Shown piece by piece: positions 5,773 to 62,754 of a stretch of DNA of 64,000 nucleotides; positions within the stretch are counted from its first letter, which is position 1, and every line of letters starts with the position of its first letter. Position numbers and translations under genes: made by a program. Under the pieces are notes generated by a model, which was not told the DNA's origin, made no database searches, and was given only the letters and a program-made list of their open reading frames with translations. The stretch comes from Minicystis rosea. GTDB taxonomy: Bacteria; Myxococcota_A; Polyangia; Polyangiales; Polyangiaceae. The stretch lies in the NCBI GenBank assembly GCA_001931535.1, contig CP016211.1:4375573-4439572 (forward strand), read 5' to 3'.

Positions 5773-5998
5773 TGAACTTTCAAAATCTGTTGAACGAATT
5801 GATGGGTCGAAAGCATCAGGAAGTCAAGCGCGTCAACGCACAGCGCACCGCGCCAAAGGGCGGCCGGAATCGTCTCCGCAGCAACCACCGCACGTTCGCG
5901 TGTTCATGGGGCGTCCACGCAAACGCGTCACAACCCATCGCACCACGGCATCGCGACATCGACGCTGCTCTCCGCGACGCGATCGAAGCGCGCGCAGC

Positions 5999-6056
5999 TC
6001 AGCCGACGAGGATCAATGCGCGCGGCTCTGCCGACGAGGATCAATGCGCGCGGCTC
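5999..6056. repeat. 2 x 28-bp direct repeat (GCCGACGAGGATCAATGCGCGCGGCTC)
   Basis: Read directly in the intergenic region between the GbsR gene and the S8 protease gene. Confidence 0.5.
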
Positions 6057-6211
6057 AGCCGCTGCTCATCCACCGCTGCGCGACGCGACGAAAGCTCAAA
6101 GCCCGACTGAGAAAGCCAACGTCAGGCCCGAGCGGCGCGACGGAAAGAGGGCGCGGGTGGTTCGAGGTATGGGGGACCCGACGACTCCGCCGGCGGGGGC
6201 TTTCCTGTCAC

Positions 6212-7354
6212 TCAGCCCGCTGCGCGCGCCGCGGCCACGGCTGCGCGCGGCTGCACCACGCCCCAGCCTTGACGATCGAGCGCGATCCCCGGCAGCCCAC
6301 GCGCCGTCTGCATCAAGAGGCGGCGGCACTGGTAGGGCTTGAGCCGCGGGTTGGCCTCCAGCATCTGCGCCACCACGCTGCTCACGATGGGCGCCGCGAA
6401 CGACGTGCCGTCGACGTGTTTGTAGTGATCCGAGATCACCTTCTGATCGTGCCACTTGGCCGCGACGAGCTGGCGCACCAGGTACGGCTCGCGTCCCGCG
6501 ATGGCGTCGAGATCGGCATCGATCCCCGCGTGATCGACGAGCAGCCCGGGGATGGCTTCGTCGCTCGCCTCGGAGAGCATCGCGAGCAGGCTCGCCTGCG
6601 CGGCGGTGGGCGTGCCCGGAAGGATCGGCGCCGCCACCCAGATGGCCGGCGCGATCAGCTCGGGCTTCTGCAAGCCATCGATCGTGAGGCCGTACGACGA
6701 GTGATAGTGCCAGCCCTGCTCGCCGGCGCCGCCGTCGTCGAGCCCGCCCACCGCGATCACGCTCGGCGCGCTCGCCGGCGGAAGCACGTGGTGCTGCGCA
6801 TCGTGGCCCGCGTTGCCGGCCGCGGCGACGACCACGATCCCTCGGCGTGACGCTTCGTCCGCGGCCATCGAGAGACCATCGGTGAGGAACGACTCTTCGT
6901 AGTCGCCGCCGCACGAGATGTTGACGACGCGGATGTTGTACTGCGCTTGATGCGCGATCACCCACTCGATGCCGCGGCGGATGTCGTCGTGCACGATGCG
7001 GTGCGCGGACCCGGCCTTCACGAGCACGAGGTCCGACTCCCACGCGAGCCCGCGGAAGCGACCGCCCGAGAGCGCTCCGTTCCCGCACGCGACCACGGAG
7101 GTCATCATCCCGTGCCACGCGGACGCGTCCGACTGCGCGAGCGCATCGCGCCCCGCCTCGGGCGCGTGGATGTCGTGGTACGCGCGGATGCGATCGCGCC
7201 CGGAGATCAGATCGGGATGCGCATAGAACCCCGAGTCGATGAAGGCGACGGTCACGCCGCGCCCTGCATACGCCGTGTCGGCGTGGAGGCGCTCCGCGAT
7301 GGGGAGAATGCGGCGCTGCGGAGGCGCCTTGGGGATCGTCGAAGTCCGGGGCAT
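6212..7354 (-). CDS. S8 family subtilisin-like serine peptidase
   Basis: Catalytic triad motifs VAFIDSGF (Asp), HGMMTSVV (His) and GTSFAAPIVS (Ser). ATG at 7354; the alternative start is GTG 7378. Confidence 0.8.
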   Translation of the reverse strand: MPRTSTIPKAPPQRRILPIAERLHADTAYAGRGVTVAFIDSGFYAHPDLISGRDRIRAYHDIHAPEAGRDALAQSDASAWHGMMTSVVACGNGALSGGRFRGLAWESDLVLVKAGSAHRIVHDDIRRGIEWVIAHQAQYNIRVVNISCGGDYEESFLTDGLSMAADEASRRGIVVVAAAGNAGHDAQHHVLPPASAPSVIAVGGLDDGGAGEQGWHYHSSYGLTIDGLQKPELIAPAIWVAAPILPGTPTAAQASLLAMLSEASDEAIPGLLVDHAGIDADLDAIAGREPYLVRQLVAAKWHDQKVISDHYKHVDGTSFAAPIVSSVVAQMLEANPRLKPYQCRRLLMQTARGLPGIALDRQGWGVVQPRAAVAAARAAG

Positions 7355-33063: not shown

Positions 33064-36000
33064 ATGACGAAGCTGACCGCCGCACTCCATGCCCTTTTCC
33101 TCGTCGCCGCGACGAGCTTCCTCGCCGCGTGCGGGCGCTCCGAAGTCGACATCTCCGTCGGTGGCTCATCGGCGACGAGCTGTCAGACGAACGCCGACTG
33201 CGCATCGACACCGGCCACGCCGCTGTGCCTGATACCACCCGGGCAGTGCGTCGCATGCTTGACCTCGCCGGACACGTGCCCGGCCGGCGAGACCTGCGAC
33301 GCCCAAACGCACACCTGCGTGCCGACCACGACGGGCTGTCAGAGCGACGCGGACTGCTCCGCGCCGACGCCGCACTGCCGGCTCGACACACACGTCTGCG
33401 TCGAGTGCACGAGCAACGAGCAGTGCCCCGGCGACGAGCAGTGCGCGAGCTTCCAATGCGTCGGCTTCTGCGGTGACGGATCGGCCTGCACCAACGGCAA
33501 GACCTGCTGCTCGCCGCTCTGCGTGGACGCGTCGAGCGATCCCGAGAACTGCGGCGGCTGCGGCATCAAGTGCGGGCCGTTCCCGCAGGCGTCGGGCTCG
33601 TGCTCGGGCGCGACGTGCACCGTCGGCCAATGCTTCCCCGGCTTCGCCAACTGCAACGGCCTCCTCAGCGACGGATGCGAGGTCGACACGGCCACCGATG
33701 CCACGAACTGCGGTGGATGCGGCATCACCTGCAAGCCCGATGAAACGTGCTCGGGCGGGACCTGCGCCGGGTCCTGCGGCGCCGTGGGCTCGTGCACGCC
33801 CACTCAAACGTGCTGCGGGACGCAGTGCGCGAACACGCAGAGCGATCCGCTGAACTGCGGGACCTGCGGCAACACTTGCACCGCGGTTCCGCAGGGCAAC
33901 ACCGCGTGCGTCTCGAGCGCGTGCCAGATCATCAACTGCGCGGCGGGCTTCGCCGACTGCAACGGCAAGATCATCGACGGCTGCGAAGCCGCCACCGACA
34001 AGGATCCCAACAACTGCGGCACCTGCGGGACGGTGTGCGCCGCGGGCTCCGTCTGCGTCGCGGGCACGTGCCAGTCCACGACCTGCAAGACCACGGGCTG
34101 CCCCGTGGGGCTCGCGTGCTGCGGTGTCGCCTGCACCGATACCAACAACGATCTCGGCAACTGCGGCGGCTGCGGCAACGCCTGCCCGCCGAACGCCACG
34201 GCGTGCATGGGCGGCGGCTGCTGCTTCCCGCAGCCCGGCGGCGGCGTCATCTGCTCCAGCGTGGTGTGCACGCCGCCGCTGCAGAACTGCGGCGGGACCT
34301 GCGTCGATCAGGGCACGGATCCCAGCAACTGCGGCGGCTGCGGCATCAAGTGCGGGCCCACCGAAACGTGCGTGAACGGCACGTGCACGGGCACGATCAC
34401 GTGCAACGGCGGCCCGGCGTGCGCGCCCACGCAGGCGTGCTGCGCGAGCGGGTGCGCGAGCACGGACACCGATCCGAAGAACTGCGGCAAGTGCGGCATC
34501 GTCTGCCCGGCCGGCAACAACTGCGTCGGCGGCTCCTGCCAGGCGACGTGCAACGGCGGGCCCACGTGCTCACCGACGCAGCAGTGCTGCTCGACCGGAT
34601 GCGCCAACACGGGCTCGGATCCGAACAACTGCGGCGGCTGCGGCATCGTTTGCCCGGCGGACACCACCTGCGTCAACGGCGCCTGCCAAGGCACGTGCAA
34701 CGGCGGACCGATGTGCGGCGCCGGACAGACCTGCTGCCCGAGCGGGTGCGCCAACACGACCAGCGACGTGAAGAATTGCGGCGGCTGCGGCATCGTCTGC
34801 GGCGACGAGCAGACCTGCAACAACGGCATGTGCACGACGCCCATGCAATGCAACGGCGGCCCGGCGTGCGGCGCCGGGCAGACCTGCTGCCCGACGGGCT
34901 GCGCGGATCTCAACAACGATCCCAACCACTGCGGCGGCTGCGCCACCGTGTGCGGGCCGACCGCGTCGTGCATCAATGGCTCGTGCGCGACCAACGAGGG
35001 CGCCTTCAATCCGATCGTGAATCCGACGTTCCTCGCGCCGGGCGTCCACAACTTCACGACGATCAACATCCCGGCGGGCGTCACCGTCTTCGTGGCCGGG
35101 CCGGGGCCGGCGTCGGGCACGCTCGATCTGCGCGCCACGGGCGCGATCGTCATCGACGGGACCATCGATCTCTCGGGCGGGCCCGGCACCCAAAACACCA
35201 TCACCTCGATGAGCACGCAGTCCGGCCGCGCCGGGAGCGGCGGTTACACGGGTGAGCCCTATCAATCGGCCACGCCTTCTTCAGCGTGCCAGTTCATCGC
35301 CGGCAACCCGGGTCAGCTCGGGTTCCAACTCCAGGGCACGCCGGGCACCTGCACCATCCTGTCGACGAGCATCTGCGTCTCGCAAATGGATCCGGCTGCG
35401 CTGGTGTTCACGGCGCCTCCGGCGATGTTCGGCGGCGGCGCAGGCGTGTTCACGGGCTTCCGTGGTTATGGCAGCGGCGGCGGCGGCCCGGCCGGCGGCG
35501 CGCCCGGCGCAATCGGGCCTGCCTTCGGCGGGCAACAGAACTGCTCGGGCGCTTCCGGCGGCGGCGGCGCCGTCGCGGGCAAGGGCGGCAATGCCGGCAA
35601 TGCCACCTACAATGGCAAGGACGGTGTGCTCGGACAGACGCAGTGCCAAGGCGTGATGGGCTTCCCGCCGGCCTACGTCGGCGGCGGCGGCGGCGGCAGC
35701 ATCGGTACACAAGCCGCCCTGGACCGCGCGGTGCTCACCACCTTCCAGACCGGCTCCGGCGGCGGCGGCGGCAGCGCCGATTACCTCAATCGTCCGGTGT
35801 TCGGCGGCACCTCGGGCGGCGGCGGCGGCGGCGGCGCGCTCAAGCTGTCCACGCCCGCGAGCATCACCATCAAGGGTCAGCTTCTCGCCAACGGCGGTGT
35901 GGGCGGCGATGCCTTCATCGGCAATGGCGCCGCGGCCGGCTGCGATCCGCAGCCCGGCGCGGCGGGTGGCGGTGGATCGGGCGGTGTGATCTACCTGTCG

Positions 36001-38664: not shown

Positions 38665-38779
38665 GCCCGAATGTATCTTCAAATATCGAGCCAAAGACTG
38701 AATCGAGCAATATCAACAGCTTGGGCAACCACGTAGGGCCTCGAAGCCCGCCAGCCCGCCAATTTCCGCCAGCCATTCA

Positions 38780-38841
38780 CGCCAACGTGGGTCGGTCCAG
38801 CCACCCAATCCGCCAACGTGGGTTGGCCCAACCCATTGACA
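38780..38841. repeat. 2 x ~31-bp tandem repeat CGCCAACGTGGGTYGG..CC, the second copy palindromic (gggttgg-c-ccaaccc)
   Basis: Read directly upstream of the RAYT-like gene. Confidence 0.5.
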
Positions 38842-38951
38842 AATCCCCGAAATCCCCGCCATAACCTCCCCCTCCTCATGACTGCCCCCCGCCCAGCCGC
38901 GAGCAACTCATCCACGCGCTCTACGAAGCTGCCGAGCTCGAGCACAACCTC

Positions 38952-47219: not shown

Positions 47220-47677
47220 CACGCCCCCTCGGCGCGGACCATCCGCTGGGCTTCGAGAATGAGCGTTCGGCGCGTCGTCGGCATTTGCGATCGCCGACGA
47301 TAGCGGGGCCCGGTCCGGCTGTCTCCGGGCTCGCGCACGCGGCTTCCGGCGGGGCCGTCATACCGCGTCCGGCGGCTCCGGATCCCGACCTACAGCGAAC
47401 GCTCCGTCCCAATGCACGGGGACGTGGAGGGGCGTGGCGAGCGCGCCCGGATGAGCCTGTGATCTCCAGAGGATTCGTCATCCCCTCCCAGGGCCTTCAC
47501 GGGTCTTTCCCTCCCCGGTGATTGGGTATCATCCCGACCCGGGCGACTGGCACGTTCGCCAGCCTTCGTCATCTTGTCGGGACTGACATCCTCGCGACGC
47601 TGTCCGCGTGTTTCATGCGGGAGCGCCCGCGGCGAAATTCAACCTCAGGCGGCACCGCAACAGCGAGAGGTCAACGC

Positions 47678-48154
47678 ATGGGCCTGATCCAAGAAGTGGC
47701 CAGGACGGACCGGCCAATCCTCGGAAACGACATTCCCATTCTCGTGTTCCGTGTCTTTCGTCACTTCTCGGCGGGCTACGTCGAGGAGGTGCTCGGGCGG
47801 GGCGCGGCCGTCGTCTTCCAAAATGGTGGGCGCGATCTCGGCCGAGAGGCGGGGACGATGCTCTACAAGCCCGATCCGACCGAGTATCTCCGGGAAGTGT
47901 GCCAATTCGTCCGGGACTCTCGCATCGGGATCCTCCAGCCTCGCGAGGTGAGCGACAAATTGCTGGTCGTCGATCTCGACGAGTGCATCACCTGCGCTGG
48001 AATGGCAAACATCGGCAAACGAATCTGCCAATTCGAGGTCGGGTTCGTGGCCGGGGTCGCCGAGGTGCTCGTGAAGAAGAAGCCGAAGGCGTACGAGACC
48101 AAGTGCAACGCCAACGGTGAGAATACCTGTCAGGTGACCGTGGAGCTCGGCTGA
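47678..48154 (+). CDS. V4R (4-vinyl reductase) domain protein
   Basis: ATG at 47678 after GAGAGG; conserved Cys pair (CITCAGM...C) typical of V4R. Confidence 0.6.
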   Translation: MGLIQEVARTDRPILGNDIPILVFRVFRHFSAGYVEEVLGRGAAVVFQNGGRDLGREAGTMLYKPDPTEYLREVCQFVRDSRIGILQPREVSDKLLVVDLDECITCAGMANIGKRICQFEVGFVAGVAEVLVKKKPKAYETKCNANGENTCQVTVELG

Positions 48155-48174
48155 GCTCGGCAGGGGGGAAGAAC

Positions 48175-48549
48175 GTGGCCAGCACGAATCGTATCGAGAG
48201 GATCCAGGACGTACTGCGCTCCCTCCGAGCCGTGTCGCCCGACATCATCGGATCGGCGATGGTGAGCACCGACGGCTTCATCATCGCCTCGCTGCTCCCG
48301 GCGGAGGTGGATGAAGAGCTGGTGAGCGGCATGGCCGCGGCGCTGCTCGGCGTGGGCGAGCGCATCGCCGGTGAGCTCATGGGTGGGTCGATGGAGCAGA
48401 CCTATGTGCGAGGTCGCCTCGGCTATGTCATCCTTCATGCGGTCGGGCAGGAGGCGCTCCTCATCGTCCTCACCACGCCGGACGCGAAGCTCGGGCTCGT
48501 GTTCCTGGACGTGAAACGAAGGGTGCAGGAGCTGACGAAGATCCTTTGA
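48175..48549 (+). CDS. Roadblock/LC7 (MglB-like) domain protein
   Basis: 124 aa; GAMVSTDGFIIAS...ALLIVLT pattern; GTG start 20 nt after the V4R stop. Confidence 0.7.
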   Translation: MASTNRIERIQDVLRSLRAVSPDIIGSAMVSTDGFIIASLLPAEVDEELVSGMAAALLGVGERIAGELMGGSMEQTYVRGRLGYVILHAVGQEALLIVLTTPDAKLGLVFLDVKRRVQELTKIL

Positions 48550-48837
48550 CGGATCCTGGCAGGATGGTGAAAAGCGTCGCGAGCGCACCAAAGCTAGGGA
48601 GCGCGACCGAGGAATCCTCGTGGATTTCGAGGGAGCCCGACCGACGATTCGAGGCGCACCGCAGCGTTTCAGCATCCTGCTAGGCTCGAAAGGCCACCTG
48701 CTCTCACCAAGGTCGATGGACGGCGCCGCGCGCGGGCGGCAGGCGGAGTCGCGTCTCCGACCGCTCGCGGTGCCGCTTCACGGCGAGAGCGCTCGTCGGG
48801 GGACGAGGCGCGCCCGTACGAGGAGGAGCGTTAGGAT

Positions 48838-49422
48838 ATGCACGCCCGCGTCGCATCAGGGGTCTTCCTGGCGCTCGGCTTCGCCGATCTGGCGCTGTTG
48901 AATCTGCTCTTGGCCCCACGGCTCGCGGCCGAGAGGGCGCTCGCCGACAAGGCTTCTCCACAAGAGATCTCCGCGCCGGTCGAGCCGCCGCGAGCTCCCG
49001 CCCAAGCGGTGACGGTGGTCAAACCACCTTCGAGCCCGCCGCCGTCGTCGACGGCGACCATCGCCGCCAATGCCCACGCGGGGCAGAGCGAGGCCGCGCC
49101 CGACGTGCTGTTCAGCCTGGAATCGGAGCGGATCACGAGCTTCGACGCGGCCATGGCGCTGGATCGCGTGGCGCGCGAGCTGCGCGCCGATCCCAAGCGC
49201 CGCGTGCTCCTCCGCGGGCACACCGATCGACTCGGCACCTCCTCGTTCAACGTGGTTCTCAGCCGCCGACGGGCCGAGTCGGTGCGTCACTTTCTCATCG
49301 CGCACGGCGCCCCGGGGGAGCGCATCGACATCGAGTCAGTGGGCGACACCGAGCCGGCCGACCCCGGCGACGGCTTCATGGCATGGGCGAAGAACCGCCG
49401 CGTGCAGGTCATCTGGCGATAA
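48838..49422 (+). CDS. OmpA-family peptidoglycan-binding protein
   Basis: C-terminal OmpA-like box LLRGHTDRLGTSSFNVVLSRRRAESVRHFL; RBS GAGGAGGAG. Confidence 0.75.
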   Translation: MHARVASGVFLALGFADLALLNLLLAPRLAAERALADKASPQEISAPVEPPRAPAQAVTVVKPPSSPPPSSTATIAANAHAGQSEAAPDVLFSLESERITSFDAAMALDRVARELRADPKRRVLLRGHTDRLGTSSFNVVLSRRRAESVRHFLIAHGAPGERIDIESVGDTEPADPGDGFMAWAKNRRVQVIWR

Positions 49423-49434
49423 CGGGACGACGCA

Positions 49435-51024
49435 ATGGATATCGTGCCTTCGATCTGCCTCTCGTCGCTGGCGGGAGCGATCTTCTTTTTCACGGGCGGC
49501 CGGCTCTCGGCGCGCGGGTCGCAATCGACCTCCGGTGGGGAGCTCGCGGCGGAGCGGGAAGCGCGCACGCGCGCCGAAGAAGAAATGGCGCGCTCGGCCA
49601 CGGCGCGCGACGAGGCGACGCGGGCGCGCGACGAAGCCGCCCGCTCACGCGACGAAGCCACACGCGCGCGCGATGAGGCGACGCGGGCGCTCGCGGCGGA
49701 GCAGGGACGCGCCATGGCGCAGGCGCGCGCGATCGAGAACGAGCGCGCCTCGCGAGCGCAGGAGGCACAGCACGCGGCCGCGGAGATCGCGCGGCTCGGT
49801 GAAGAGGGCACGCGCCTCCGCGCGCACGCCGCGAGCCTCGCGCAGCAGATCACGGAGATGCAAGCGCGCCTCGTCGCCGGAGCGAGCGAAGCCCGCGCGC
49901 AGATGAGGTCGGCACCCGACGATGGGCGCGCTGCGGCCGCCGAGAAGCGCGCGACCACGCTCTCGGCCGATCTCGAGAAGGCCCGCGGCGAGCTCGCACG
50001 AGCAATCGACGCGAAGAATCGGCTCGACACCGAGATCACCGATCTGAAAGCCCGGCTCGCGCAGCGCGGGAACGGCGCCGACGAAGCACGTCGCGAGGCC
50101 GAGGCGCAGGCCACGCGACGCGTGGCGGAGATGCAGAAGGAGATCGAGCAAGCGCGGAGCGAACGCGCGGCCACACGCTCGCAGCTCGATCAGACGCGCA
50201 CGCAACTGAACCAGGCGCGCACGGCGCTCACCGCCGCCGAGACGCGCGCCACCGCGGCGGAAGCGCGCGCGACCGCCGCGGAGAAACGCGTGGCCGACGC
50301 GGAGAAGCACGCGGCCGAAGCGGAGAAGCACGCGGCCGACGCGGATCGATTGCGCGCCGAGAACGCTCAGCTGCGCGCCGAAAAGGCCGCGACGCCGAGC
50401 CCGGGAGGCGATCTCGCGGAGCTGCAGCGACGCGGCCTCGAGCTGACCATGAGGACGCGCGTGATCGAGCAGCGCACCGGCGAGCTCGAGCGCGCCAATG
50501 CCGAGAACCACGAGCTGCGCACCCGCGTCGAGGCGCTCACCGAGGCCGCGCGCGAGGCGGACGAGCTGCGCCGCCGCGTGGCCGAGCTCGAGGCGATGGG
50601 CTTCGCCAAGCGCCTCGAAGAGCCGCCGCCGCCGAGCCGTCCGCCGCCCGAAGGCGCGCGCCTCTCCACGGTGCTCGAGCGCGAGCTCGATCGGCTCGTG
50701 AGCCGCGAAGAAGGCTGCCGCATGGCGGTGCTCGCCGACCCGCGCGGGCTCTTGATCGCCGCCTCGGCAGGCGCGTCGTATCCGCACGAGGTCGCGGCCG
50801 CGTCGTCGCTCACCACCACCACCTCCGATCGGCTGCGCGAGCTGATGCCGCTCGGCGCGCCCGCGAGCCTCGAGCTCTACGACGAGAACGGGCTCTGCAT
50901 GCGGACGCGATGGATCCGCTTCGAGAAGGAATGGTTCTTGGTGAGCACGGTGGGCATGGTGGATCCGCAGGACACGGAGGCCGCGGATCTGCGCTCGCGG
51001 CTCGGAGAGCTCATCGGCCGCTGA
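49435..51024 (+). CDS. long coiled-coil protein with C-terminal Roadblock/LC7-like domain
   Basis: About 330 aa of heptad-like Ala/Arg/Glu-rich coiled coil, then RMAVLADPRGLLIAASAG...LVSTVGMVDP. Confidence 0.55.
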   Translation: MDIVPSICLSSLAGAIFFFTGGRLSARGSQSTSGGELAAEREARTRAEEEMARSATARDEATRARDEAARSRDEATRARDEATRALAAEQGRAMAQARAIENERASRAQEAQHAAAEIARLGEEGTRLRAHAASLAQQITEMQARLVAGASEARAQMRSAPDDGRAAAAEKRATTLSADLEKARGELARAIDAKNRLDTEITDLKARLAQRGNGADEARREAEAQATRRVAEMQKEIEQARSERAATRSQLDQTRTQLNQARTALTAAETRATAAEARATAAEKRVADAEKHAAEAEKHAADADRLRAENAQLRAEKAATPSPGGDLAELQRRGLELTMRTRVIEQRTGELERANAENHELRTRVEALTEAAREADELRRRVAELEAMGFAKRLEEPPPPSRPPPEGARLSTVLERELDRLVSREEGCRMAVLADPRGLLIAASAGASYPHEVAAASSLTTTTSDRLRELMPLGAPASLELYDENGLCMRTRWIRFEKEWFLVSTVGMVDPQDTEAADLRSRLGELIGR

Positions 51025-51044
51025 CGGACGATCGCGGGGGGATC

Positions 51045-52151
51045 ATGGATCACGAGCTCGCAACCAACGACGAGACGAAGGGCTGGGACGCGGCCACGGA
51101 TCGCGAGAGCGGATTCACCCCGATCGCGGGGCGCTATCCGGGCAGCGCGGTGCTCGACGAAGCGGGCCTCGGCGTCGTCCTCTTCGATCCCGGCGGGGAG
51201 ATCGCGGCCAGCAACGCCACCGCCGAGGAGCTCCTCGGCCGCCGCGTGGATCGGACGACGCTGCTCCGTCAGGTGCTCGAGCGAGCGCACGCCGGCGGCC
51301 CCAGCGAAGGCGAGCACGACGAGCAGCAGCTCGTCGAGGTCGAGGCCGCCGGCGGCCGGCGCGGCGTCGTTGGCTACCGCGTGGTGCGATCCCCGCGGCT
51401 CGGCACGATCTTCACGCTGCGCGACATCACCGAGCTGGAGCGCACGCGCGCCGAGCGGCGAGCGCTCGAGCGGCTCTCGCAGGTCGGGCGCGCCTGCGCC
51501 ATGGTGGCGCACGAGATCGGCAATCCCCTCGCGGCGCTCAAAGCCACGTTGCAATCGATCGAGCGCGAGGCCGCCGCCGCGGGGCTCGGCGACACCATCG
51601 CCGCCGTGTTCCGCGAGATCGATCGGCTCGACAACATCCTCGGCCAGCTCCTCGGGTTCGTGCGTCACCGCATGCCGCGGCGCGTGCGCACCGATCTCTC
51701 GGTCGTGATCGCGCGCGCCCGCGAGGCGACGCGCGATCGCCTGCAGCACATCTCCTTCCACGCGCCGCGCGGCCCGCTCCCGGACGTCCACTGCGATCCG
51801 GATCAGATGGAGCAGGTCTTCTTGAACCTCTTCCTCAACGCTGCCGAAGCGATGGGCCATCGCGGCGAGATCCGCGTGCGCGCCGGCGCCTCCTCCACGC
51901 ACCTCTGGATCCGCGTGGAGGACTCGGGCCCGGGCGTGCCCGCGGGGCTCCGCGAAAAGGTCTTCGAGTCCTTCTTCACCACCCGGACCACGGGCGTCGG
52001 CCTCGGCCTCCCCGTGTGCCTCCGGATCATGAGCGATCACCACGGATCCATCTCCATCGAAGATCGCGAGGGAGGCAAAGGCGCGAGCGTGCGCCTGTCC
52101 CTGCCCTTCGGTACGGTCACCGGGCGCCGGCCGCGAGAGGAGCGGAAATGA
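51045..52151 (+). CDS. sensor histidine kinase (PAS-HisKA-HATPase_c), cytoplasmic
   Basis: H-box MVAHEIGNPLAAL; N and G boxes NLFLNAAEAM, DSGPGV and GVGLGL. Confidence 0.8.
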   Translation: MDHELATNDETKGWDAATDRESGFTPIAGRYPGSAVLDEAGLGVVLFDPGGEIAASNATAEELLGRRVDRTTLLRQVLERAHAGGPSEGEHDEQQLVEVEAAGGRRGVVGYRVVRSPRLGTIFTLRDITELERTRAERRALERLSQVGRACAMVAHEIGNPLAALKATLQSIEREAAAAGLGDTIAAVFREIDRLDNILGQLLGFVRHRMPRRVRTDLSVVIARAREATRDRLQHISFHAPRGPLPDVHCDPDQMEQVFLNLFLNAAEAMGHRGEIRVRAGASSTHLWIRVEDSGPGVPAGLREKVFESFFTTRTTGVGLGLPVCLRIMSDHHGSISIEDREGGKGASVRLSLPFGTVTGRRPREERK

Positions 52152-53233
52152 CACCACGAAGGCCGAAGGTGCTGATCGTCGACGACGAGGACAACATCGT
52201 CCTCGCGCTGCACCGCGTGCTCTACCAGGACAACGTCCGCTACGACGTGCTCCTGGCGCGGTCGGCCGAGATCGCCCAGCAGATCTTGGAGGACACGCGC
52301 ATCGACGTGCTCGTCACCGACGTGCACCTGCCCGAAAAGAGCGGGATGGATCTCTTGAGCTGGGTGGCGGTGCAGACGCCGAGCACCCGCGTGATCGTGA
52401 TGACCGCGTTCGACGTGCTCCGCATCAAGGATCGCGCGCATGCCTTCGGCTGCCTGCGCCTCGTGCGCAAGCCCTTCGACGTGCACGAGATGCGGGCCGC
52501 CATCATCAGCGCCCTCGGGGTGCGCGACACCTTCAAGGGTCACCTCTCCGAGCTGTCCTGCGTCGACGTGATCCAGATGCTCTGCATTGCGCGCAAGACC
52601 ACGGCGCTCCGGCTGTCCGAGGGCGAGAGCGCCGGTGTCATCCACATCGAGAACGGCGAGATCGTGCACGCGGTGTGGGACGACATCGTCGGCGAAGAGG
52701 CCTTCTTCCGCATGCTCGCGGTGAAGAACGGGCTCTTCAACACCGGGCCTCTGCCGCCGGAGATCGAGCGGACCATCCGCGGCGATTGGCAATATCTCCT
52801 CATCGAAGGCCTCCGCCGGCTCGACGAGGCCGCCGCCGGCATCTCCGAGCCCGAGCGCCCCTCGGTACGCCCCGCACCGCCGCCCGAAACGAGCAACGAG
52901 ACGACCACGCCCTTCTCGCGCCCGCGGCCTGTGGAGCGCGAGAGCACCACGGTCACCCTCGCGCGCTCCACCATGGGATCGATGCTGAGCGGCCCCGCCA
53001 GCACGCCGGCGCCGAGCTCGTCACCACGCAGCCCCGAGGTCACGCGACTCATCGACGAAGGCTTCAGCGCCCTCCGGGACCGCCGCCGTGACGACGCCCG
53101 GCGCGCCTGGGAGGCCGCGCTCCGGCTCGATCCCGGCAATCGCATGATCGAGCTCAACCTCCGCAAATTGGGTGTGGAGGTCCCGCCGCCGCCGCACTCG
53201 GGCCGAGGCTCCGGAGAGCTCGAGACCGGCTGA
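52148..53233 (+). CDS. response regulator: REC domain + DUF4388 domain + Pro-rich tail
   Basis: REC motif KVLIVDDEDNIV...DVLVTDVHLP...VIVMTA; the start ATGA overlaps the histidine-kinase stop; GHLSELSCVDVIQML matches DUF4388. Confidence 0.75.
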   Translation: MTPRRPKVLIVDDEDNIVLALHRVLYQDNVRYDVLLARSAEIAQQILEDTRIDVLVTDVHLPEKSGMDLLSWVAVQTPSTRVIVMTAFDVLRIKDRAHAFGCLRLVRKPFDVHEMRAAIISALGVRDTFKGHLSELSCVDVIQMLCIARKTTALRLSEGESAGVIHIENGEIVHAVWDDIVGEEAFFRMLAVKNGLFNTGPLPPEIERTIRGDWQYLLIEGLRRLDEAAAGISEPERPSVRPAPPPETSNETTTPFSRPRPVERESTTVTLARSTMGSMLSGPASTPAPSSSPRSPEVTRLIDEGFSALRDRRRDDARRAWEAALRLDPGNRMIELNLRKLGVEVPPPPHSGRGSGELETG

Positions 53234-53238
53234 CGCCC

Positions 53239-53473
53239 CGCAAAGCCCTCTCGGCCTCCATCCGGGACATCCCCTCTCCCTCTTCGCAAAGCCATCTCGG
53301 TCTCCATCCCGGACATCGCCTCTCCTCGTTCGCAAAAGCCACCTCGCCCTCCATCCGGGACATCCCCTCTCCCTCTTCGCAAAGCCATCTCGGTCTCCAT
53401 CCGGGACATCTCATCTCCTCGCGCCCAAGCCATCTCGCCATCCACTCCGGACAGCGCCCATCGCGCAAAAGCT
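53239..53473. repeat. ~46-bp tandem repeat, about 5 copies (CGCAAAGCCATCTCGGTCTCCATCCGGGACATCCCCTCTCCCTCTT)
   Basis: Read directly, immediately after the response-regulator stop and ~120 bp upstream of the flavoprotein-membrane fusion gene. Confidence 0.85.
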
Positions 53474-53589
53474 TCGTTGTGCGCCTGGACCGAACACCGC
53501 TCCTGGCGCGTGAGGTTGTAATCGGTATTATTGGCAATGTTGGCCTGACTCGTCATTTCGGGAGAGCCAAGGGCCGGGCGGGGGGCGCC

Positions 53590-56500
53590 ATGGTCGACCT
53601 CGGTGAACGACAGACCCTGGTGGTCATCGGCAATGGCATGACCAGCCACGCGCTCTGCCGCAGGCTCGCGGAGTGCGGGGTCACACGCGGTGAGCTCGAG
53701 GTCGTGGTCTTCGGCGAAGAGCCGCGGCCCGCGTACGATCGCGTGCACCTCACGGATCTCCTCGGCGGCAAGACCGAGGCCGATCTCTCGCTTGCCCCGC
53801 GCTCCTGGTACGAAGATCGCGCCATCACGCTCCACCTCGGCGATCCCGTGGTGGAGATCGATCGCGACGAGTGCCTCGTGCGCTCCGCGTCCGGCGCCAC
53901 CGTGCTCTTCGATCGGCTCGTCTTCGCTACGGGATCACGGCCGTTCATCCCGCCCATCCCGGGCGTCGATCTGCCGGGCGTCTTCGTCTATCGCACCGTC
54001 ACCGATCTCCACGCCATCCTCGCGCATGCGTCGTCCGCCAAGCGCGCCGCGGTGATCGGCGGCGGCCTGCTCGGGTTGGAGGCCGCGCGCGCGGTGCACG
54101 CCCTGGGGCTCGAGGTGCACATCATCGAGGCCCATCCAGGGCTGATGTCGCGCCAACTCGACGCCACGGGCGCGCGCCTCCTCGGCGAGCGCGTCGAGAC
54201 GCTCGGCGTGCGCGTGAAGACGGGCGCGCGCACCGCGCGCATCGACGCCGGCAAGTCCGCGAGCGCCGCCTCCAAGCGGATCCTCCGTTTCGAAGACGGC
54301 TCCACACTCGAGGTCGATCTCGTGATCTTCGCCGCCGGCGTTCGCCCTCGCACCGAGCTCGGCGTCGCCTGCGGGCTCCTCACGGCGCCGAGCGGCGGGC
54401 TCCTCGTCGACGATCGCCTCACCACCTCCGATCCACGCATCTTCGCGGTCGGCGAGTGCGCCACGCATCGAGGCATCACCTATGGCCTGGCCGCGCCCGG
54501 CTATCAGATGGTCGACGTGCTCGTGAACAACATCGGCGGCGGGGACGCCACGTTCACGGGCGCGAGCCAGTCGACCCGCTTGAAGCTGCTCGGCGTGCAC
54601 GTCGCCTCGCTCGGTCGGCCCGATGAAAAGAGCACGCCGGGCGCGACCACGCATACGTACCTCGCCGGGGGCGCCTATCGAAAGCTGGTGATCGCCGATG
54701 GCCACATCATCGGTGCCATCGCGATCGGTGAATGGGAAGATCTGGTGCGCATCGAGGACGCGCTCGCCGAGCCGCGCCGCGTCTCGTTCTGGGATCTGCG
54801 CCGCTTTCGCAGCACGGGCAGCCTCTTTCTCAAATCGGAGTCGCCGCCCGTGCACGAGTGGCCGGCGGAAGCGCTCGTGTGCGGCTGCCTCGGCGTGCGG
54901 CGCGGCGCGCTCAGCGATGCGGAGATCAAAGGCTGCTCCACCGTCGAAGCCATGTCGGCCCACACCGGCGCTGGCACCATGTGCGGCTCCTGCAAACCGC
55001 TCCTCGCGGATTACCTCCGTCGCGAGCGCGCCGATTCTCTCCCTGCCTCTCAGCTCCTGCGGCTCGCCCCGCCGCGCGTGCCGACCTTCGACGGCGTCGC
55101 TCCTTCGAGCAAGGCGCGCCCCGCCTCGGCCGCGCCCCTGCCTTCCAAGCCCACCCCCGCGCCCATCCCTGCGGCGCCCACGCCGCCGAGCACAGCCGGC
55201 GTCGCCGCGCCCAAAGGACGCAAGAGCTCGAATGCACCCTCGCGCAAAGCGCGTCACAACTCGGGAGCTCCGTCGCGCCAGGCAAAGGCCCTATCGAACA
55301 TTCCGCCGCGCCGAACGACGGCCCCTTCGCAAGCTCCGCTTCCTGCACCCAAGGACAAGACCCTTTCCGTTGCTCCCCTGCCCAAAGCGAAGACCAGCTC
55401 GGCGCCTCCGAGCACGGCGCGGTCCGAGCCGACCGCCGCGCCTCGCAATGCACCTTCGCACGCGGCCTCTCCGGCGAGCGTGGCAAAGCCCCCTGCGGTC
55501 GCGGCCCCGCGCGATGCAGAGCCCCTTTCGGTTGCACCTCCGAGCACCGCACGCTCCGAGCCCGCCGCGTCGTCCAACAAGGCTCGTCCCGTTGCCCCAC
55601 CGGCGCCGCGAATCGAGACCGCGGTTGCCCGACGCGAGGCCAAGCCTGACTCCGTAACTCCGCCCAGCACCGCTCGTCCGGGAGCGCCCCTTTGCTCGGC
55701 GCGCCGCGATTCCGCCGCTCCACCGAGCACCGCGCGTCCCGGCTCGGCTGCGCCGCGGTGCGCTTCATCCAACGAGCTTGTCGAGCAACGATGCTCGCTG
55801 CGCGCCGATTCGATTGTTCCTCCGTGCGCCGCCCATGTCGACGAAGTGAATCAACCCCGATCCACCCCCGCGGCGAGTGACGATCGCGGGGAGGACTCGC
55901 CGCCGACGCTGCGCTGCAATGACGAGGGGAATGGAGCCGTGATCGAGCCGGCCGCGCCTGAAGCGCCGACGTCCGATGATGAGGATCCTCTCTCGATTCC
56001 GGCGCTCGCACCGCCGCAGGCCGCGGAGCCCGCAAAGCCGCCCGCGCCTTCCCCGCCTCCACCACCGGACTCGACGCCCGGCGAAGGCCCTCTCTCCGTG
56101 CGCTCGCCGCGTGCCGGACGCGTGCGCCCGCGGCGTCGTCAGGCTTTCGATACGCTGCAGAGCACACCGCCCATCGGCGCGGTCACCGCGCGCGAGGCAG
56201 CGTCGATCCGCCTCGATGCGCCGTCCAAACGCACCCTCACCGCCGCGCTTCCATCCATCGCGGCCCATTTGAGCGCCGCCCGCGCCGAGCGTGCACCGAT
56301 CTCGGTCGCACCCGCGTCCACCATCTCGACACGACAAGAGTCCTCGACGCGGCTGCGACCTTCGATTGCAGAGCAGGGGCCCGTCTCGGAGGCGCAGCGC
56401 GCCAAAGCACCTTCGATCGTTCCACCGCCCAAACCACCTTCGCTCGTTCCACCACCCAAACCACCTTCGATCGTCCCACCGCCCAAACCACCTTCGATCA

Positions 56501-57210
56501 TTCCCCCGCCGCTCAGCGTCCGTGGTCCCGACTCGAATGCACGCGGCGTCGACAGCGCGCCTCCGTCGACGCGACGCGGATCGATGCCACCGCTCCGCCC
56601 CCTCTCCGTGCCTCCGGGGCGGCTCCCTTCGATTCCACCACCGCGCCTCTCGCTCGCGCCCATGGCGCCCGCCCAGCGCGCCGAGGAGCGCCGCCGGCAG
56701 GCGTTGCTCGGATCGGCGGCGAGCGCGTTCGCGGGCGTGTTGATGCTCCTCCTCGCGCCGTCCCTCGGCCCCGCGCGCTCGTTCCTCGGCTTTCATCTGG
56801 ACGCGCTCATCGTCGATCGCATCGTCCGCCAAGCGAGCGGTTATGCCGTGCTCGTCCTCTCGCTCTTGGGGCTCTTCCTTTCGATTCGCAAGCGCGTTCC
56901 GCGCCTCGCTTCCCGCGACATCCCCGGCGCGCGCGCGTTCCATGGAGTCGTCGGCGCGGCGGCGATCGCGTTCCTCTTCCTCCACACCGGCCTGCACCTC
57001 GGCGTGCGCTTGAATCGACTGCTCATGCTCGACTTCCTCGCGCTCTCCGCGCTCGGCGCGGTTGCGGGCCTCTTCGCCGCCGTCATCGGCAACGGTGATC
57101 CGGCCGCTGCGCAGGCGCGGAGGCTCTTCGTCTTCCGCGTGCACGTCATCCTCTTTCTCCCCTTCCCCATCCTGGTCGCCCTGCACGTGCTCGGCGCCTA
57201 CTACTTTTGA
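53590..57210 (+). CDS. NirB-like FAD/NAD(P)H oxidoreductase + BFD-like [2Fe-2S] domain, ~560-aa Pro/Ala-rich disordered linker, C-terminal ferric-reductase-like bis-heme-b transmembrane domain
   Basis: N-terminus VVIGNGMTSHA, AAVIGGGLLGLEAA and AVGECA (class-II pyridine-nucleotide disulfide oxidoreductase fold). BFD box CGCLGVRRGALSDAEIKGCSTVEAMSAHTGAGTMCGSCKPLL. Linker repeats KPPSIVPPP x4 and PPSTARSEP. C-terminal TM helices carry FHGVVGAAAIAFLFLH (H-x13-H) and VHVILFLPFPILVALH (H-x13-H). Confidence 0.75.
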   Translation: MVDLGERQTLVVIGNGMTSHALCRRLAECGVTRGELEVVVFGEEPRPAYDRVHLTDLLGGKTEADLSLAPRSWYEDRAITLHLGDPVVEIDRDECLVRSASGATVLFDRLVFATGSRPFIPPIPGVDLPGVFVYRTVTDLHAILAHASSAKRAAVIGGGLLGLEAARAVHALGLEVHIIEAHPGLMSRQLDATGARLLGERVETLGVRVKTGARTARIDAGKSASAASKRILRFEDGSTLEVDLVIFAAGVRPRTELGVACGLLTAPSGGLLVDDRLTTSDPRIFAVGECATHRGITYGLAAPGYQMVDVLVNNIGGGDATFTGASQSTRLKLLGVHVASLGRPDEKSTPGATTHTYLAGGAYRKLVIADGHIIGAIAIGEWEDLVRIEDALAEPRRVSFWDLRRFRSTGSLFLKSESPPVHEWPAEALVCGCLGVRRGALSDAEIKGCSTVEAMSAHTGAGTMCGSCKPLLADYLRRERADSLPASQLLRLAPPRVPTFDGVAPSSKARPASAAPLPSKPTPAPIPAAPTPPSTAGVAAPKGRKSSNAPSRKARHNSGAPSRQAKALSNIPPRRTTAPSQAPLPAPKDKTLSVAPLPKAKTSSAPPSTARSEPTAAPRNAPSHAASPASVAKPPAVAAPRDAEPLSVAPPSTARSEPAASSNKARPVAPPAPRIETAVARREAKPDSVTPPSTARPGAPLCSARRDSAAPPSTARPGSAAPRCASSNELVEQRCSLRADSIVPPCAAHVDEVNQPRSTPAASDDRGEDSPPTLRCNDEGNGAVIEPAAPEAPTSDDEDPLSIPALAPPQAAEPAKPPAPSPPPPPDSTPGEGPLSVRSPRAGRVRPRRRQAFDTLQSTPPIGAVTAREAASIRLDAPSKRTLTAALPSIAAHLSAARAERAPISVAPASTISTRQESSTRLRPSIAEQGPVSEAQRAKAPSIVPPPKPPSLVPPPKPPSIVPPPKPPSIIPPPLSVRGPDSNARGVDSAPPSTRRGSMPPLRPLSVPPGRLPSIPPPRLSLAPMAPAQRAEERRRQALLGSAASAFAGVLMLLLAPSLGPARSFLGFHLDALIVDRIVRQASGYAVLVLSLLGLFLSIRKRVPRLASRDIPGARAFHGVVGAAAIAFLFLHTGLHLGVRLNRLLMLDFLALSALGAVAGLFAAVIGNGDPAAAQARRLFVFRVHVILFLPFPILVALHVLGAYYF

Positions 57211-57212
57211 TC

Positions 57213-58544
57213 ATGGGCGCACGGCGTACGCTCCTCGTCGGATCGCTGGTCACCGCCGCGCTCGGTGCCTATCACGGCGCACCTCTGGTGCTCGCCGGCG
57301 CCGACAAGCGCGACCATCTTCCGGGCCGCACGTCACGCGGACACGAAGCCTTCGAGTCCGCCTGCGCCACGTGTCACACACCCTTTCGCGGCGTGACCAA
57401 CGATGCTTGCAAACGCTGTCACGAAGAGGGGCTCGCGGCCGCCGAAGACTCGCACCCCGAGAGCAAGTTCACCGATCCACGCAACGCGACCCGCGTCGCC
57501 GCGCTGGATGCGCGCGCCTGCGTGACCTGTCATCGCGAGCACGTGCCCGATCGCACGAACGCAGGCGTCACGCTCCCCGCCGATTTCTGCGGCGCGTGCC
57601 ACCAAGACATCCGCCACGAGCGAGCGAGCCACGCGAGCTTCTCGTTCGAGGGTTGCGCGCGCGCCGGCTGTCATCGCTTCCACGACAACCGTGGTCTCTA
57701 CGAAGGCTTCCTCGCCAAGCACCAGCACGAGCCCGAGAACCTGCCCAAGGCCGTCGTTCTCCTCGTCACGCGCACGGCGGCCGCAGGCAAGGCGCTCACC
57801 GTCGCCGATGCGGACGCACCGCCTGCTTCTCGCACCGAAGCGGTGATGCATGCTTGGTCGACCACCGCGCACGCGCGTGGAGGCGTGGGGTGCAAAGCCT
57901 GTCACGACGTGCGCGACGCCGCGACGGGGACGCGTGCTTGGAAGGATCATCCCGGCACCGCGTCCTGCGAAGGTTGCCACGGCGGCGAGCACGCGAGCTT
58001 CCTCCGCGGCCAGCACGGCGTGCGCACGGCCGTGGGCCTCTCGCCGCTCACACCGGCCATGGCCCGTCTCCCCATGAAACCCGAGGCGCGCGGCCGCACG
58101 CTCGATTGCGAGTCTTGCCACGGCGCGCACGCGTACGACACCGCGCGCGCCGCCGCCGATGCCTGCCTCGGATGCCACGACGATCGCCACAGCCGCGGCT
58201 GGGCGACGACGCGACACGCGCTCGCCTTTCGTCGCGAGCAGAGCGGCGCCGCCGCGCCGGGGACGGGGGTTTCCTGCGCCACCTGTCACTTGCCCCGCGT
58301 GGCGCGACGCGCGCACGGCACCGACGAAGTGAGCGCGAGCCACGACGTGAGCGCGGCGCTCCGCCCGCGCGACAAGATGCTGCGGGCCGTGTGCGTGCGT
58401 TGTCACGGCCTCGGCTTCGCCATCGACGCGCTCGCCGACGGCGATCTCGTGCAACGCAACTTCAACGGCCGCCCAGCGGTGCACGTCGAGAGCCTGGAGA
58501 TGGTCGAGCGCCGCGCGCACGAAGATCAGGGAGGTGGGGGATGA
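57213..58544 (+). CDS. multiheme c-type cytochrome (10 CxxCH + 1 CX4CH)
   Basis: Heme motifs CATCH, CKRCH, CVTCH, CGACH, CARAGCH, CKACH, CEGCH, CESCH, CLGCH, CATCH and CVRCH. The N-terminal TM/signal is LLVGSLVTAALGA. ATG at 57213 follows the upstream stop. Confidence 0.85.
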   Translation: MGARRTLLVGSLVTAALGAYHGAPLVLAGADKRDHLPGRTSRGHEAFESACATCHTPFRGVTNDACKRCHEEGLAAAEDSHPESKFTDPRNATRVAALDARACVTCHREHVPDRTNAGVTLPADFCGACHQDIRHERASHASFSFEGCARAGCHRFHDNRGLYEGFLAKHQHEPENLPKAVVLLVTRTAAAGKALTVADADAPPASRTEAVMHAWSTTAHARGGVGCKACHDVRDAATGTRAWKDHPGTASCEGCHGGEHASFLRGQHGVRTAVGLSPLTPAMARLPMKPEARGRTLDCESCHGAHAYDTARAAADACLGCHDDRHSRGWATTRHALAFRREQSGAAAPGTGVSCATCHLPRVARRAHGTDEVSASHDVSAALRPRDKMLRAVCVRCHGLGFAIDALADGDLVQRNFNGRPAVHVESLEMVERRAHEDQGGGG

Positions 58545-59116
58545 CCATGACGACGCGTTTCCTGTCGAAGCTCCTCCCGGCCGCGGCGCTCGTCGCCGCC
58601 GCCGGATGCGGTAAATCCGAGCCCCATGGAGGCATCGCCCCGCAGACGATGGCCGACGGCCTCTATGCGGTCATGTCCGCCGATCGCGCCGTCTACACGC
58701 GTGAGGTCGTGGCCCGTTTGCAAGACGACGAGGGCGTGATCAAAGCCAGCGAGCACTTCAAGGACGACAAGGCCCTTCCGCTGCCCGCCCAGATGTTCCG
58801 CATGGGCGCGGAGACGGCGCGCAAACAATCTCCCGGCTTCACCTATGCGCTGCTCTCGCAATGGCCCATCAACAAACAGAACCTGCCTCGCACCGAGATC
58901 GAAAAGACCGGCCTCCGCCGCGTGGCCGAGACCGGCAACCCCTTTTACGGCGAGGAGACGCTGGCCGGCACGCGCTACTTCACCGCCGTCTACGCGGATC
59001 GCGCGGTGTCGACGGCGTGCGCCAACTGCCACAACGGCCATCGCGACAGCCCGAGGCACGATTTCAAGCAAGGCGACACGTTGGGTGGCGTGGTGATCCG
59101 CATCGCGCTCAAGTGA
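58541..59116 (+). CDS. DUF3365-like monoheme lipoprotein
   Basis: ATGA overlap with the cytochrome stop; lipobox LVAAAGCG; single CANCH near the C-terminus. Confidence 0.6.
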   Translation: MTMTTRFLSKLLPAAALVAAAGCGKSEPHGGIAPQTMADGLYAVMSADRAVYTREVVARLQDDEGVIKASEHFKDDKALPLPAQMFRMGAETARKQSPGFTYALLSQWPINKQNLPRTEIEKTGLRRVAETGNPFYGEETLAGTRYFTAVYADRAVSTACANCHNGHRDSPRHDFKQGDTLGGVVIRIALK

Positions 59117-59191
59117 CGCCTTTTCCCTGATTGCGCGCGCCTCCGCACGCGCCCCTTTCAATGCGCCGTCCGCTGTCGCATCCTCGCGGCG

Positions 59192-61794: not shown

Positions 61795-62754
61795 ATGCGC
61801 TTCTGGCATGTATCGCTGTTCGTGACCGCGCTCACCGCGCCCGTCCTGGTCACCCCGAGCACCGACGCCGCCGAGTGCTCGCAACCGCCGCGCGGCGGCA
61901 GCTCCTCCGGCGGCACCGTCACGCCACCGGCGACCACCGGATCTTCCGGCAGCAATACCTCTTCTGGTGATCCGGCCACGTCCGGCGCCGGCGGCGCGAG
62001 CACGGGCACCTCCGGCAGCTCCAACGCAGGTGGCGCGCCGAGCGGCGGTGAGCCGAGCGAGGGTGGCGCCGCAAACGCAGGTGGAGCGGCAAACGAGGGT
62101 GGTGCTGCGAACGCAGGTGGTGCACCGAGCGGTGGTGAGCCCAACGAGGGTGGTGCCGCAAATGCAGGTGGCGCGCCCAACGAGGGTGGAGCTGCGAACG
62201 CAGGTGGCGCGCCCAATGGTGGTGAGCCCAACGAGGGTGGTGCACCCGGCGATCCCAACGCCGGTGTCGGCGGTGGCACGAGCAGTGGAGATCCTCCGAT
62301 CCCCCGCGATCGCACGACCTGCGATGCGGCCAAGGCCTGTTACGAGCGCTGCACGCCGGAGTGCACGTGGTACTGCGCCGACATCCACGATTGTGCGCCC
62401 ACCTGCATCGATCGCTGCGAGCACGAGTGTGACAAGGTCTGCCCCATTTCCAACTGCGAGAAGTACTGCACCACCACGTGCAACCTCGATTGCCGGATCC
62501 AGTGCCTCGAGGCCGACGATCGCGAGGGGTGCATCGCGTCATGCTCGTCCACCTGCCCCGCCCAGTGCGACGCCAAGTGCGGGCCGACCGAGCTTGGCCC
62601 GGCCGAGATCAAGAGCGCGCGCAAGGCCGCGAGCTGCGCGCTGTCCGAGCCGATTGGCTCGCTCGGCAATGGGTCCGTGCTCGGCCTCGGTGTCCTCGCC
62701 GGTCTCGCCGCCTGCCGGCGCCGGGCGAAGCGGGGTTCTCCCGGACGCGCGTGA
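61795..62754 (+). CDS. secreted repeat protein: (GGAANAGGAPNEGG)n repeats, Cys-rich module, MYXO-CTERM-like tail
   Basis: ATG at 61795 after GGAAGGGGGA; signal peptide; about 9 Gly/Ala/Asn repeats; 26 Cys; C-terminal GSVLGLGVLAGLAACRRRAKR. Confidence 0.6.
   Translation: MRFWHVSLFVTALTAPVLVTPSTDAAECSQPPRGGSSSGGTVTPPATTGSSGSNTSSGDPATSGAGGASTGTSGSSNAGGAPSGGEPSEGGAANAGGAANEGGAANAGGAPSGGEPNEGGAANAGGAPNEGGAANAGGAPNGGEPNEGGAPGDPNAGVGGGTSSGDPPIPRDRTTCDAAKACYERCTPECTWYCADIHDCAPTCIDRCEHECDKVCPISNCEKYCTTTCNLDCRIQCLEADDREGCIASCSSTCPAQCDAKCGPTELGPAEIKSARKAASCALSEPIGSLGNGSVLGLGVLAGLAACRRRAKRGSPGRA

Follow-up and report, generated by a model that had tools for sequence, protein, structure and literature searches.

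A phased tandem array between a response-regulator gene and a flavoprotein gene of Minicystis rosea is probably a clade-specific regulatory element

The mycobacterial interspersed repetitive units (MIRUs; MIRU-VNTR when named together with variable-number tandem repeats), reportedly described by Supply et al. in 1997 and 2000, are intergenic minisatellites of high-GC bacteria. MIRUs occupy about 40 dispersed loci, vary in copy number between strains and contain small open reading frames that overlap the stop and start codons of the flanking genes. The classic example lies within the two-component system senX3-regX3. Iterated operator arrays that are bound by one regulator include the metboxes of MetJ, plasmid iterons and the 43-bp sopC repeats of F. 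An array of five units is present in a 64-kb stretch of the Minicystis rosea contig CP016211.1 (the whole stretch is called the window), where it occupies the sole spacer between the gene for a REC-DUF4388/PATAN response regulator and the gene for a flavoprotein with membrane helices. The format of the array is closest to intergenic minisatellites such as MIRUs, and it resembles iterated operator arrays too. The core of its unit is shared by three lineages, and the array probably has a regulatory function confined to this clade; it is unlikely to be hypervariable or to code for protein. In the reading that is tentatively preferred, with a probability of roughly 0.36, the array would present phased recognition sites to a sequence-specific factor, through which the downstream genes are controlled.

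The features in common with MIRUs are imperfect head-to-tail units of about 46–53 bp, a location in the spacer between co-directional operon genes and a high-GC host. Unlike MIRUs, the array has no coding signal, no start codon overlaps the TGA, and the frame relative to the ATG varies among the window and the related loci L001 and L003. No second locus was found in the 64 kb or in the collections scanned, and two assemblies of a relative showed no variation. The likeness to iterated operators consists of a conserved core in one orientation and fixed phase, looser sequence between the cores and a position beside the gene that would be controlled. Points of difference are the length of the core (about 28 nt), its asymmetry and lack of a dyad, a period of about 4.4 helical turns, and an extent of about 280 bp upstream of the putative start site.

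The array begins 5 nt 3′ of the stop codon of the regulator gene and ends about 40 bp 5′ of a conserved non-coding block of about 60 bp. This location agrees with the original prediction, the regulator stop codon being at positions 53231–53233 and the flavoprotein ATG at 53590. Two calls were made by Tandem Repeats Finder, one for positions 53239–53450 (period 46, 4.6 copies, 83% matches, 5% indels, score 276) and one for positions 53242–53450 (period 93, 2.3 copies, 88% matches, score 328). Each unit is composed of an asymmetric C-rich core of about 28–29 nt with the consensus AAGCCATCTCGSYCTCCATCCSGGACA, found on the same strand throughout, and a fast-evolving spacer of about 17–18 nt. The starts of a 32-nt core were placed by a repeat search at positions 53243, 53289, 53336, 53382, and 53427, in steps of 46, 47, 46, and 45, with 81–100% identity to the reference copy. 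The 16-mer CTCCATCCGGGACATC occurs four times in the array at 0–1 mismatch, with 1.09 occurrences expected per whole window even at up to 3 mismatches, and the nhmmer E-values of the five units range from 1e-12 to 3e-7. The array is therefore real and far beyond chance.

The identities between hand-cut units reveal a two-unit, 93-bp higher order. Units 1–4 are 0.79–0.91 identical in an ABAB pattern that is set by the pairs 1/3 and 2/4 (Table 1), and unit 5 is 0.66–0.72 identical to units 1–4. The five-copy array of about 46 bp per unit that was described earlier was recovered, and its perfect or near-perfect repetition was not, the units being 66–91% alike. The possible vestigial sixth unit in Table 1 was read from the sequence and the alignment and was not picked up by nhmmer.

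Table 1. Coordinates of the repeat units, the conserved block and the neighboring genes (window positions unless another locus is named)
Feature	Position	Strand	Description
Histidine-kinase gene	50910–52151		Upstream of regulator gene
Response-regulator gene	52148–53233	+	REC, DUF4388/PATAN, disordered linker, one TPR-like hairpin (Pfam, translation, AlphaFold model)
Repeat unit 1, type A	53239–53284	+	CGCAAAGCCCTCTCGGCCTCCATCCGGGACATCCCCTCTCCCTCTT; nhmmer E = 2e-11
Repeat unit 2, type B	53285–53330	+	nhmmer E = 1e-12
Repeat unit 3, type A′	53331–53377	+	47 nt; 91% identical to unit 1
Repeat unit 4, type B′	53378–53423	+	89% identical to unit 2
Repeat unit 5, degenerate	53424–53465	+	Nearest to conserved block; nhmmer E = 3e-7
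Possible vestigial unit 6, weak	53464–53502	+	Starts CGCAAAAGC as unit 3; has CCTGGAC, also in L001
Conserved non-coding block	53503–53564	+	CTGGCGCGTGAGGTTGTAATCGGTATTATTGGCAATGTTGGCCTGACTCGTCATTTCGGGAG; aligned in five lineages
Block in L001	1997–2056		
Block in L003	11261–11320		
Block in L004	about 7179–7240		
Block in L047	about 2811–2870		
Flavoprotein-membrane gene	53590–57210	+	NirB-like FAD/NAD, Rubredoxin_C, BFD [2Fe-2S], linker, five C-terminal hydrophobic helices
Multihaem cytochrome c gene	57207–58544		Downstream of flavoprotein gene
Tll0287-like gene	about 58541–59116		After cytochrome gene

The closest homologs of the regulator are found in Polyangiales metagenomes and in a Minicystis metagenome-assembled genome (MAG, locus L003). 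Look-ups of the exact sequences of the window regulator and Roadblock protein returned no entries. A hidden Markov model (HMM) was built from the five window units alone and searched against a 586-kb database. Four matches were obtained inside the 234-bp spacer of L001/L002, the closest relative (E = 1e-4, 1.4e-3, 0.08, and 0.19), and one clear match (E = 0.0065) and one weak match were obtained at L003. Matches in L004 were at noise level only, and nothing was detected elsewhere in the 64-kb window, where the best E was 11. The sharing of 9-mers with the motif by L004 and L047 was no better than that of shuffled sequences. In a pairwise alignment the five units of the window align positionally with five units of L001, the first of which is degenerate. 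The unit counts are thus 5 in the window, 4–5 in L001, and 2 in L003. The distances from the core ends to the conserved block are 59, 104, 150, 197, and 243 bp in the window (period 45–47 bp), 48, 96, 143, and 189 bp in L001 (period 46–48 bp), and 70 and 126 bp in L003 (period 56 bp).

Seven old units, picked by similarity to the core, were compared with one another: unit 5 of the window, four units of L001 and two of L003. Their cores have a mean pairwise identity of 0.60 and their spacers one of 0.37, and the random expectation from composition is 0.30. This core–spacer difference was reached in just 17 of 10,000 column permutations. Core and spacer identities are 0.59 vs 0.37 between loci and 0.64 vs 0.39 within loci. 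By hand count, the core of unit 5 shares 22 of 26 positions with the L001 unit nearest the block and 26 of 31 with one L003 unit, and the flanks of these cores could not be aligned.

A functionless minisatellite that arose by tandem duplication in a duplication-prone genome and is drifting would account for some of these observations and is considered rather unlikely. Tandem repeats are common in the window, including one in the neighboring flavoprotein gene (27 bp × 4, positions 56402–56510). The spacer appears dispensable, orthologous operons having gaps of 1–27 bp, and there are lineages that possess the conserved block and not the motif (L047, and L004 at noise level). The repeat-bearing distal part of the spacer is 54% identical to L001, which is under the neutral expectation, and could not be aligned with L003. 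The core–spacer difference given above argues against simple drift, as does the core of unit 5, which is about 84–85% identical to L001 and L003 units despite its unalignable flanks. Both the window and L001 have five positionally matching units. Unconstrained decay is disfavored because L001 retains the 46–48-bp phase with near-random spacers.

The gap between the regulator and flavoprotein genes is 356 bp in the window. It is 338 bp in L001/L002, where the regulator is 96% identical to that of the window, and 265 bp in the L003 MAG (87%). The gap is 200 bp in L004 (83%), 198 bp in L047 (83%), 175 bp in L049 (76%), and about 110 bp in L046 (80%). It is 27 bp, with a Shine–Dalgarno sequence only, in L040–L045 (80%) and 1 bp in L006 (70%). 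The spacer is therefore a derived, clade-specific addition, because the genes are 1–27 bp apart in the more distant orthologous operons. A search of genome contigs with the regulator alignment returned two true orthologs, one in a sequence that ends before the spacer and the other with a gap of 1 bp. A search with the flavoprotein N-terminus returned no close relatives, the matches being dominated by a large NirB-like family.

The proximal region of the spacer (positions 53484–53589) is 87.7% identical to L001 and 80.2% identical to L003. The corresponding values for the regulator gene are 90.7 and 79.9%, and the neutral expectation, from 4-fold sites, is about 71%. The proximal region is thus as conserved as coding DNA and is above the neutral expectation. 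The conserved block within it is AT-richer than the genome and contains TGTAAT, a TAnnAT hexamer and the direct repeat TTGGC-N4-TTGGC. The block is located 30 nt from the ATG in the window, 28 nt in L001 and 25 nt in L003. The flavoprotein genes would have their putative internal promoter or operator, or a leader, in this block. As RNA the block has a weak consensus fold (−13.9 kcal/mol, with little covariation). A conserved peptide through the block (LAREVVIGIIGNVGLTRHFG) was considered and rejected; its GC content at third codon positions (GC3) is about 45% by hand count, there is no start codon in L001, and the frame relative to the ATG differs in L001 and L003.

Two observations were made upstream of the block in other lineages. 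A perfect 14-bp palindrome (GATCATCGATGATC) is found at positions 2785–2798 of L047, a lineage without the C-rich motif, and a 6-N7-6 inverted repeat (CCGAGA...TCTCGG) is found at positions 7161–7179 of L004. These two sequences suggest that regulatory sites turn over upstream of the block. The operator-like sequences of L047 and L004 are consistent with the region upstream of the block being regulatory DNA that is subject to turnover.

The sequence of events that would be envisaged for the recognition sites is as follows. The operon would once have been contiguous, a spacer would have opened in it between the regulator and flavoprotein genes, and the array would fill that spacer. The cores would serve as phased sites for a putative factor, most likely a DNA-binding regulator, whose target may be an internal promoter or operator that lies in the conserved block, 40–100 bp downstream. 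The flavoprotein, cytochrome and Tll0287-like genes could then be controlled apart from the upstream sensory genes. The array would have grown, and would have been partly homogenized, by tandem duplication or gene conversion of the two-unit (93-bp) block. The anatomy of the array, its lack of coding function, its restriction to one clade, the stronger conservation of core than of spacer, the kept phase and the age of the latest homogenization are established by the sequence comparisons; protein binding to the cores, action on DNA rather than RNA and a promoter in the block are all three inferred. Recognition by a sequence-specific factor is favored because the core is position-specific, is retained in three lineages, keeps its phase and has a conserved block nearby.

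Several findings weigh against this preferred reading. The core statistics come from three related lineages and from units that were chosen by similarity, and the 56-bp spacing of the cores in L003 departs from the 45–48-bp phase. No inverted repeats and no dyad symmetry of the core were found in the array by the repeat search. The sites would reach to about −280 from the putative start site, a long distance for an ordinary activator, and the 46–47-bp period of about 4.4 helical turns would put neighboring sites on opposite faces of the helix. No gene for a DNA-binding protein was found among the neighboring genes of the operon scanned with Pfam and NCBIfam. No sigma-70 consensus is conserved on either strand of the block; a lone sigma-70-like match on the minus strand of the window is absent from L001 and L003. 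A sigma-54-like GG...TTGT in the block was rejected on a hand check, being one base off in spacing and not kept in L047. The non-conserved spacers between the cores are likewise C-rich and G-poor, with a C/G ratio of about 2.3 by hand count. The whole array also has the composition of a Rho-utilization (rut) site, which a DNA-binding model leaves unexplained.

The last two points lead to an alternative that is possible and less probable than recognition by a DNA-binding factor, namely that the array is a rut-type intercistronic terminator or insulator. As RNA, the array would form the untranslated 3′ end of the regulator mRNA, load Rho and stop read-through into the flavoprotein genes; expression of these genes would then be attenuated or would require a promoter of their own. 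Rut sites are predicted from a length of at least 78 nt, C/G > 1 and regularly spaced C residues (PMC6407284). The plus strand of the array contains 107 C and 38 G, and the array is the most C-rich, G-poor and pyrimidine-rich 200-nt stretch in the 64-kb window (GC skew −0.50, z = −4.3; 68% pyrimidine). The C/G ratio in 78-nt windows of the array reaches 3.9 (median 3.0), and a value of at least 3 is reached by just 0.2% of such windows on both strands of the 64 kb. The C residues are regularly spaced, and the density of YC dinucleotides is 0.34 in the array vs 0.17 window-wide. The C/G ratios of the motif-bearing spacers of L001 and L003 are 2.42 and 2.29, and those of lineages without the motif are 1.23, 1.08, and 0.70.

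The predicted transcript is unstructured. The plus strand of the array folds worse than shuffled sequences (z = +1.42), the value for the minus strand (z = −1.57) is not significant, and that for the whole spacer is z = +0.43. No excess RNA stability was found for the array on either strand, for the conserved block or for the whole spacer, and no intrinsic terminator was found at the array. The array resembles rut sites in offering at least 78 nt of C > G sequence with C residues at regular intervals, in being neither structured nor translated, and in following immediately on the stop codon of a co-directional gene (PMC6407284). Rho termination is ranked a close second because the C > G bias reaches the non-conserved spacers, the RNA has no structure and the array starts right after the stop codon. 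Rut sites, however, are defined by composition and are not usually tandem repeats with a position-specific core and fixed phase. Rho needs composition only, which leaves unexplained the 28-nt core with its conserved A, T, and G and the 46–48-bp phase, and the composition could be a by-product of a C-rich core and its duplication. The criteria of RhoTermPredict are also permissive, about half of all windows here having C/G > 1. Phased recognition sites and a rut site are not mutually exclusive.

The original prediction had proposed iterated binding sites for the adjacent REC-DUF4388 regulator. The cis-regulatory part of this proposal is plausible, the core of about 28 nt being conserved in relatives; the identification of that regulator as the binder found no support beyond adjacency and is very unlikely. 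No DNA-binding domain was detected in the regulator by Pfam, NCBIfam or PDB sequence searches. Pfam recognizes REC, DUF4388 and a weak TPR match, NCBIfam recognizes REC only, and no relative of the output half was found by sequence in the PDB. The full-length model of the regulator consists of REC, an alpha/beta domain (130–230), a disordered linker and three TPR-like helices, with no helix-turn-helix. A Foldseek search with the full model returned REC domains only. Orthologous regulators of 76–83% identity are found in operons without the motif. The PATAN response regulators that have been characterized act by protein–protein contact with type IV pilus motor proteins (bioRxiv 10.1101/2021.06.11.447907). 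As a long shot, a protein encoded in the same sensory module might directly read the phased cores, which are purine-rich on the opposite strand. The most provocative candidate would be the REC-PATAN regulator, acting on single-stranded DNA or nascent intercistronic RNA. If this were true, read-through or initiation into the flavoprotein and multihaem-cytochrome genes would be gated by phosphorylation of a regulator that lacks any known nucleic-acid-binding domain, and the PATAN domain would gain a new output function.

The age of the array was estimated from its two 93-bp halves, which differ by 8 substitutions and 1 indel (d = 0.09). The window and L001 differ by d = 0.36 at 4-fold sites of the regulator gene, so that the latest duplication or gene-conversion event has roughly one-quarter of the age of the split between them. 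Since five units match by position in the two lineages, the more parsimonious history is one in which a two-unit block was converted by another and no units were gained. The L001 and L002 sequences, from different samples and independent assemblies, show 2 mismatches in 4022 bp and none in the array. The array is not a slippage-prone contingency locus. A phase-variable promoter spacer had been suggested earlier, and a contingency locus in which copy number alters promoter geometry is now highly improbable. The array shares with contingency loci a tandem repeat near a gene start, here beside a probable promoter region, and its copy number is 5, 4–5, and 2 across the lineages. Contingency loci, in contrast, have short, identical units that slip frequently inside a promoter spacer or open reading frame. 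The units here are long, differ by 9–34% and have been stable for long, the last rearrangement being old, and the array is located upstream of the block and not between promoter elements.

The least likely explanations are a repeat coding for a small protein on either strand, a structured noncoding RNA or leader, and a CRISPR-like or dispersed mobile repeat. Five of the six frames are open across the array in the window, and the 93-bp period is a multiple of 3. The GC3 of the array is nevertheless flat, at 0.59–0.69 in all six frames, vs 0.91 and 0.80 in the flanking genes. Stops are present in all three minus frames of the L001 array, and L001 has no canonical start codon for the frame through the block. 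These results bear out the earlier view that the array is non-coding; the minus-strand peptide CPGWRPRWLCEEGEGMSRME, which had been counted three times, is present twice only. A structured leader, also proposed earlier, is contradicted by the folding of the plus strand, by the absence of inverted repeats and by a search of Rfam 15 over positions 52800–53900 with E up to 10, in which there were only two chance miRNA matches (E = 8–9), both outside the array. A G-quadruplex or i-motif was set aside, since tracts of three or more G are confined to the A-type units and the feature is not conserved.

The conserved core and variable spacers of L001 superficially recall a CRISPR array. The spacers are just about 18 nt long, vs at least about 26 nt in CRISPR arrays, they are mutually similar in the window, and the cores of L001 are degenerate. 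No cas-like domains were detected in the flanking genes scanned, and no Rfam match was found in the array. A mobile repeat is opposed by the lack of further copies in the window. The core pattern GCCATCTCN{3,6}TCCATCCNGGAC gave 44 metagenome matches, all single, with unrelated flanks and diverse GC content, and 1 single viral match; the 44 metagenome matches look like chance. No second array or dispersed family was found in the 64-kb window or in the metagenome and viral collections, a metagenome collection that does not include the nearest relatives, which are ENA contigs.

If the cores are functional, the locus illustrates how a tight operon can be split, namely by insertion of a spacer with a conserved block and an array of phased sites that can expand. 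In one myxobacterial clade, a putative electron-transfer module of flavoprotein and multihaem cytochrome would then be uncoupled from its sensory genes, and the 28-nt core would be a defined bait for the regulator of that module. The locus also permits a clean test of whether very C-rich intercistronic repeats load Rho in high-GC bacteria. A neutral array would be just an example of the birth and concerted evolution of a minisatellite. Functional or neutral, the array is not a hypervariable switch and is an ordinary kind of feature.

The genes around the array were also analyzed. The ATG of the regulator gene overlaps the stop codon of the kinase gene (ATGA). The gene order of the window (positions 47600–59120) is kept in the Polyangiales loci L003, L004, L040, and L046: V4R, Roadblock/LC7, OmpA-like, coiled-coil protein, histidine kinase, REC-PATAN regulator, flavoprotein-membrane protein, multihaem cytochrome c and Tll0287-like. 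The Polyangiales operon thus joins a sensory or polarity-type module to a redox module. The gene descriptions given before were sound, with a NirB-like flavin domain, a BFD domain and hydrophobic helices followed by a multihaem cytochrome gene. The flavoprotein of the window contains a linker of about 530 amino acids that is rich in Pro, Ser, and Ala. The linker has been expanded in this lineage, because the protein is 1206 amino acids long vs 831–921 in orthologs. The 27-bp tandem repeat at positions 56402–56510 is in frame within the linker and codes for PPPKPPS(I/L)V repeats.

The 3′ end of the regulator gene (positions 53113–53144, coding for LRLDPGNRM) shares 20 of 32 positions with the repeat core, and 15 of 19 over CTCGATCCCGGCAATCGCA. 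Derivation of the unit from this segment was rejected, the match being 63%, out of register and approximately at chance level. Further tandem repeats in the window are found at positions 5990–6061 (28 bp × 2.6, GCGCGCGGCTCAGCCGACGAGGATCAAT), 34398–34953 (147 bp × 3.7), and 62023–62243 (87 bp × 2.5, G-rich, with an 18-bp substructure). Tandem duplication seems to be frequent in the M. rosea genome. The divergent intergenic region at positions 38745–38860 is among the few other stretches with a C/G ratio of at least 3. It contains two copies of a 31-bp unit, each with the imperfect palindrome CCAACGTGGGTYGG, and two adjoining copies of AAATCCCCG, and it looks like a duplicated operator.

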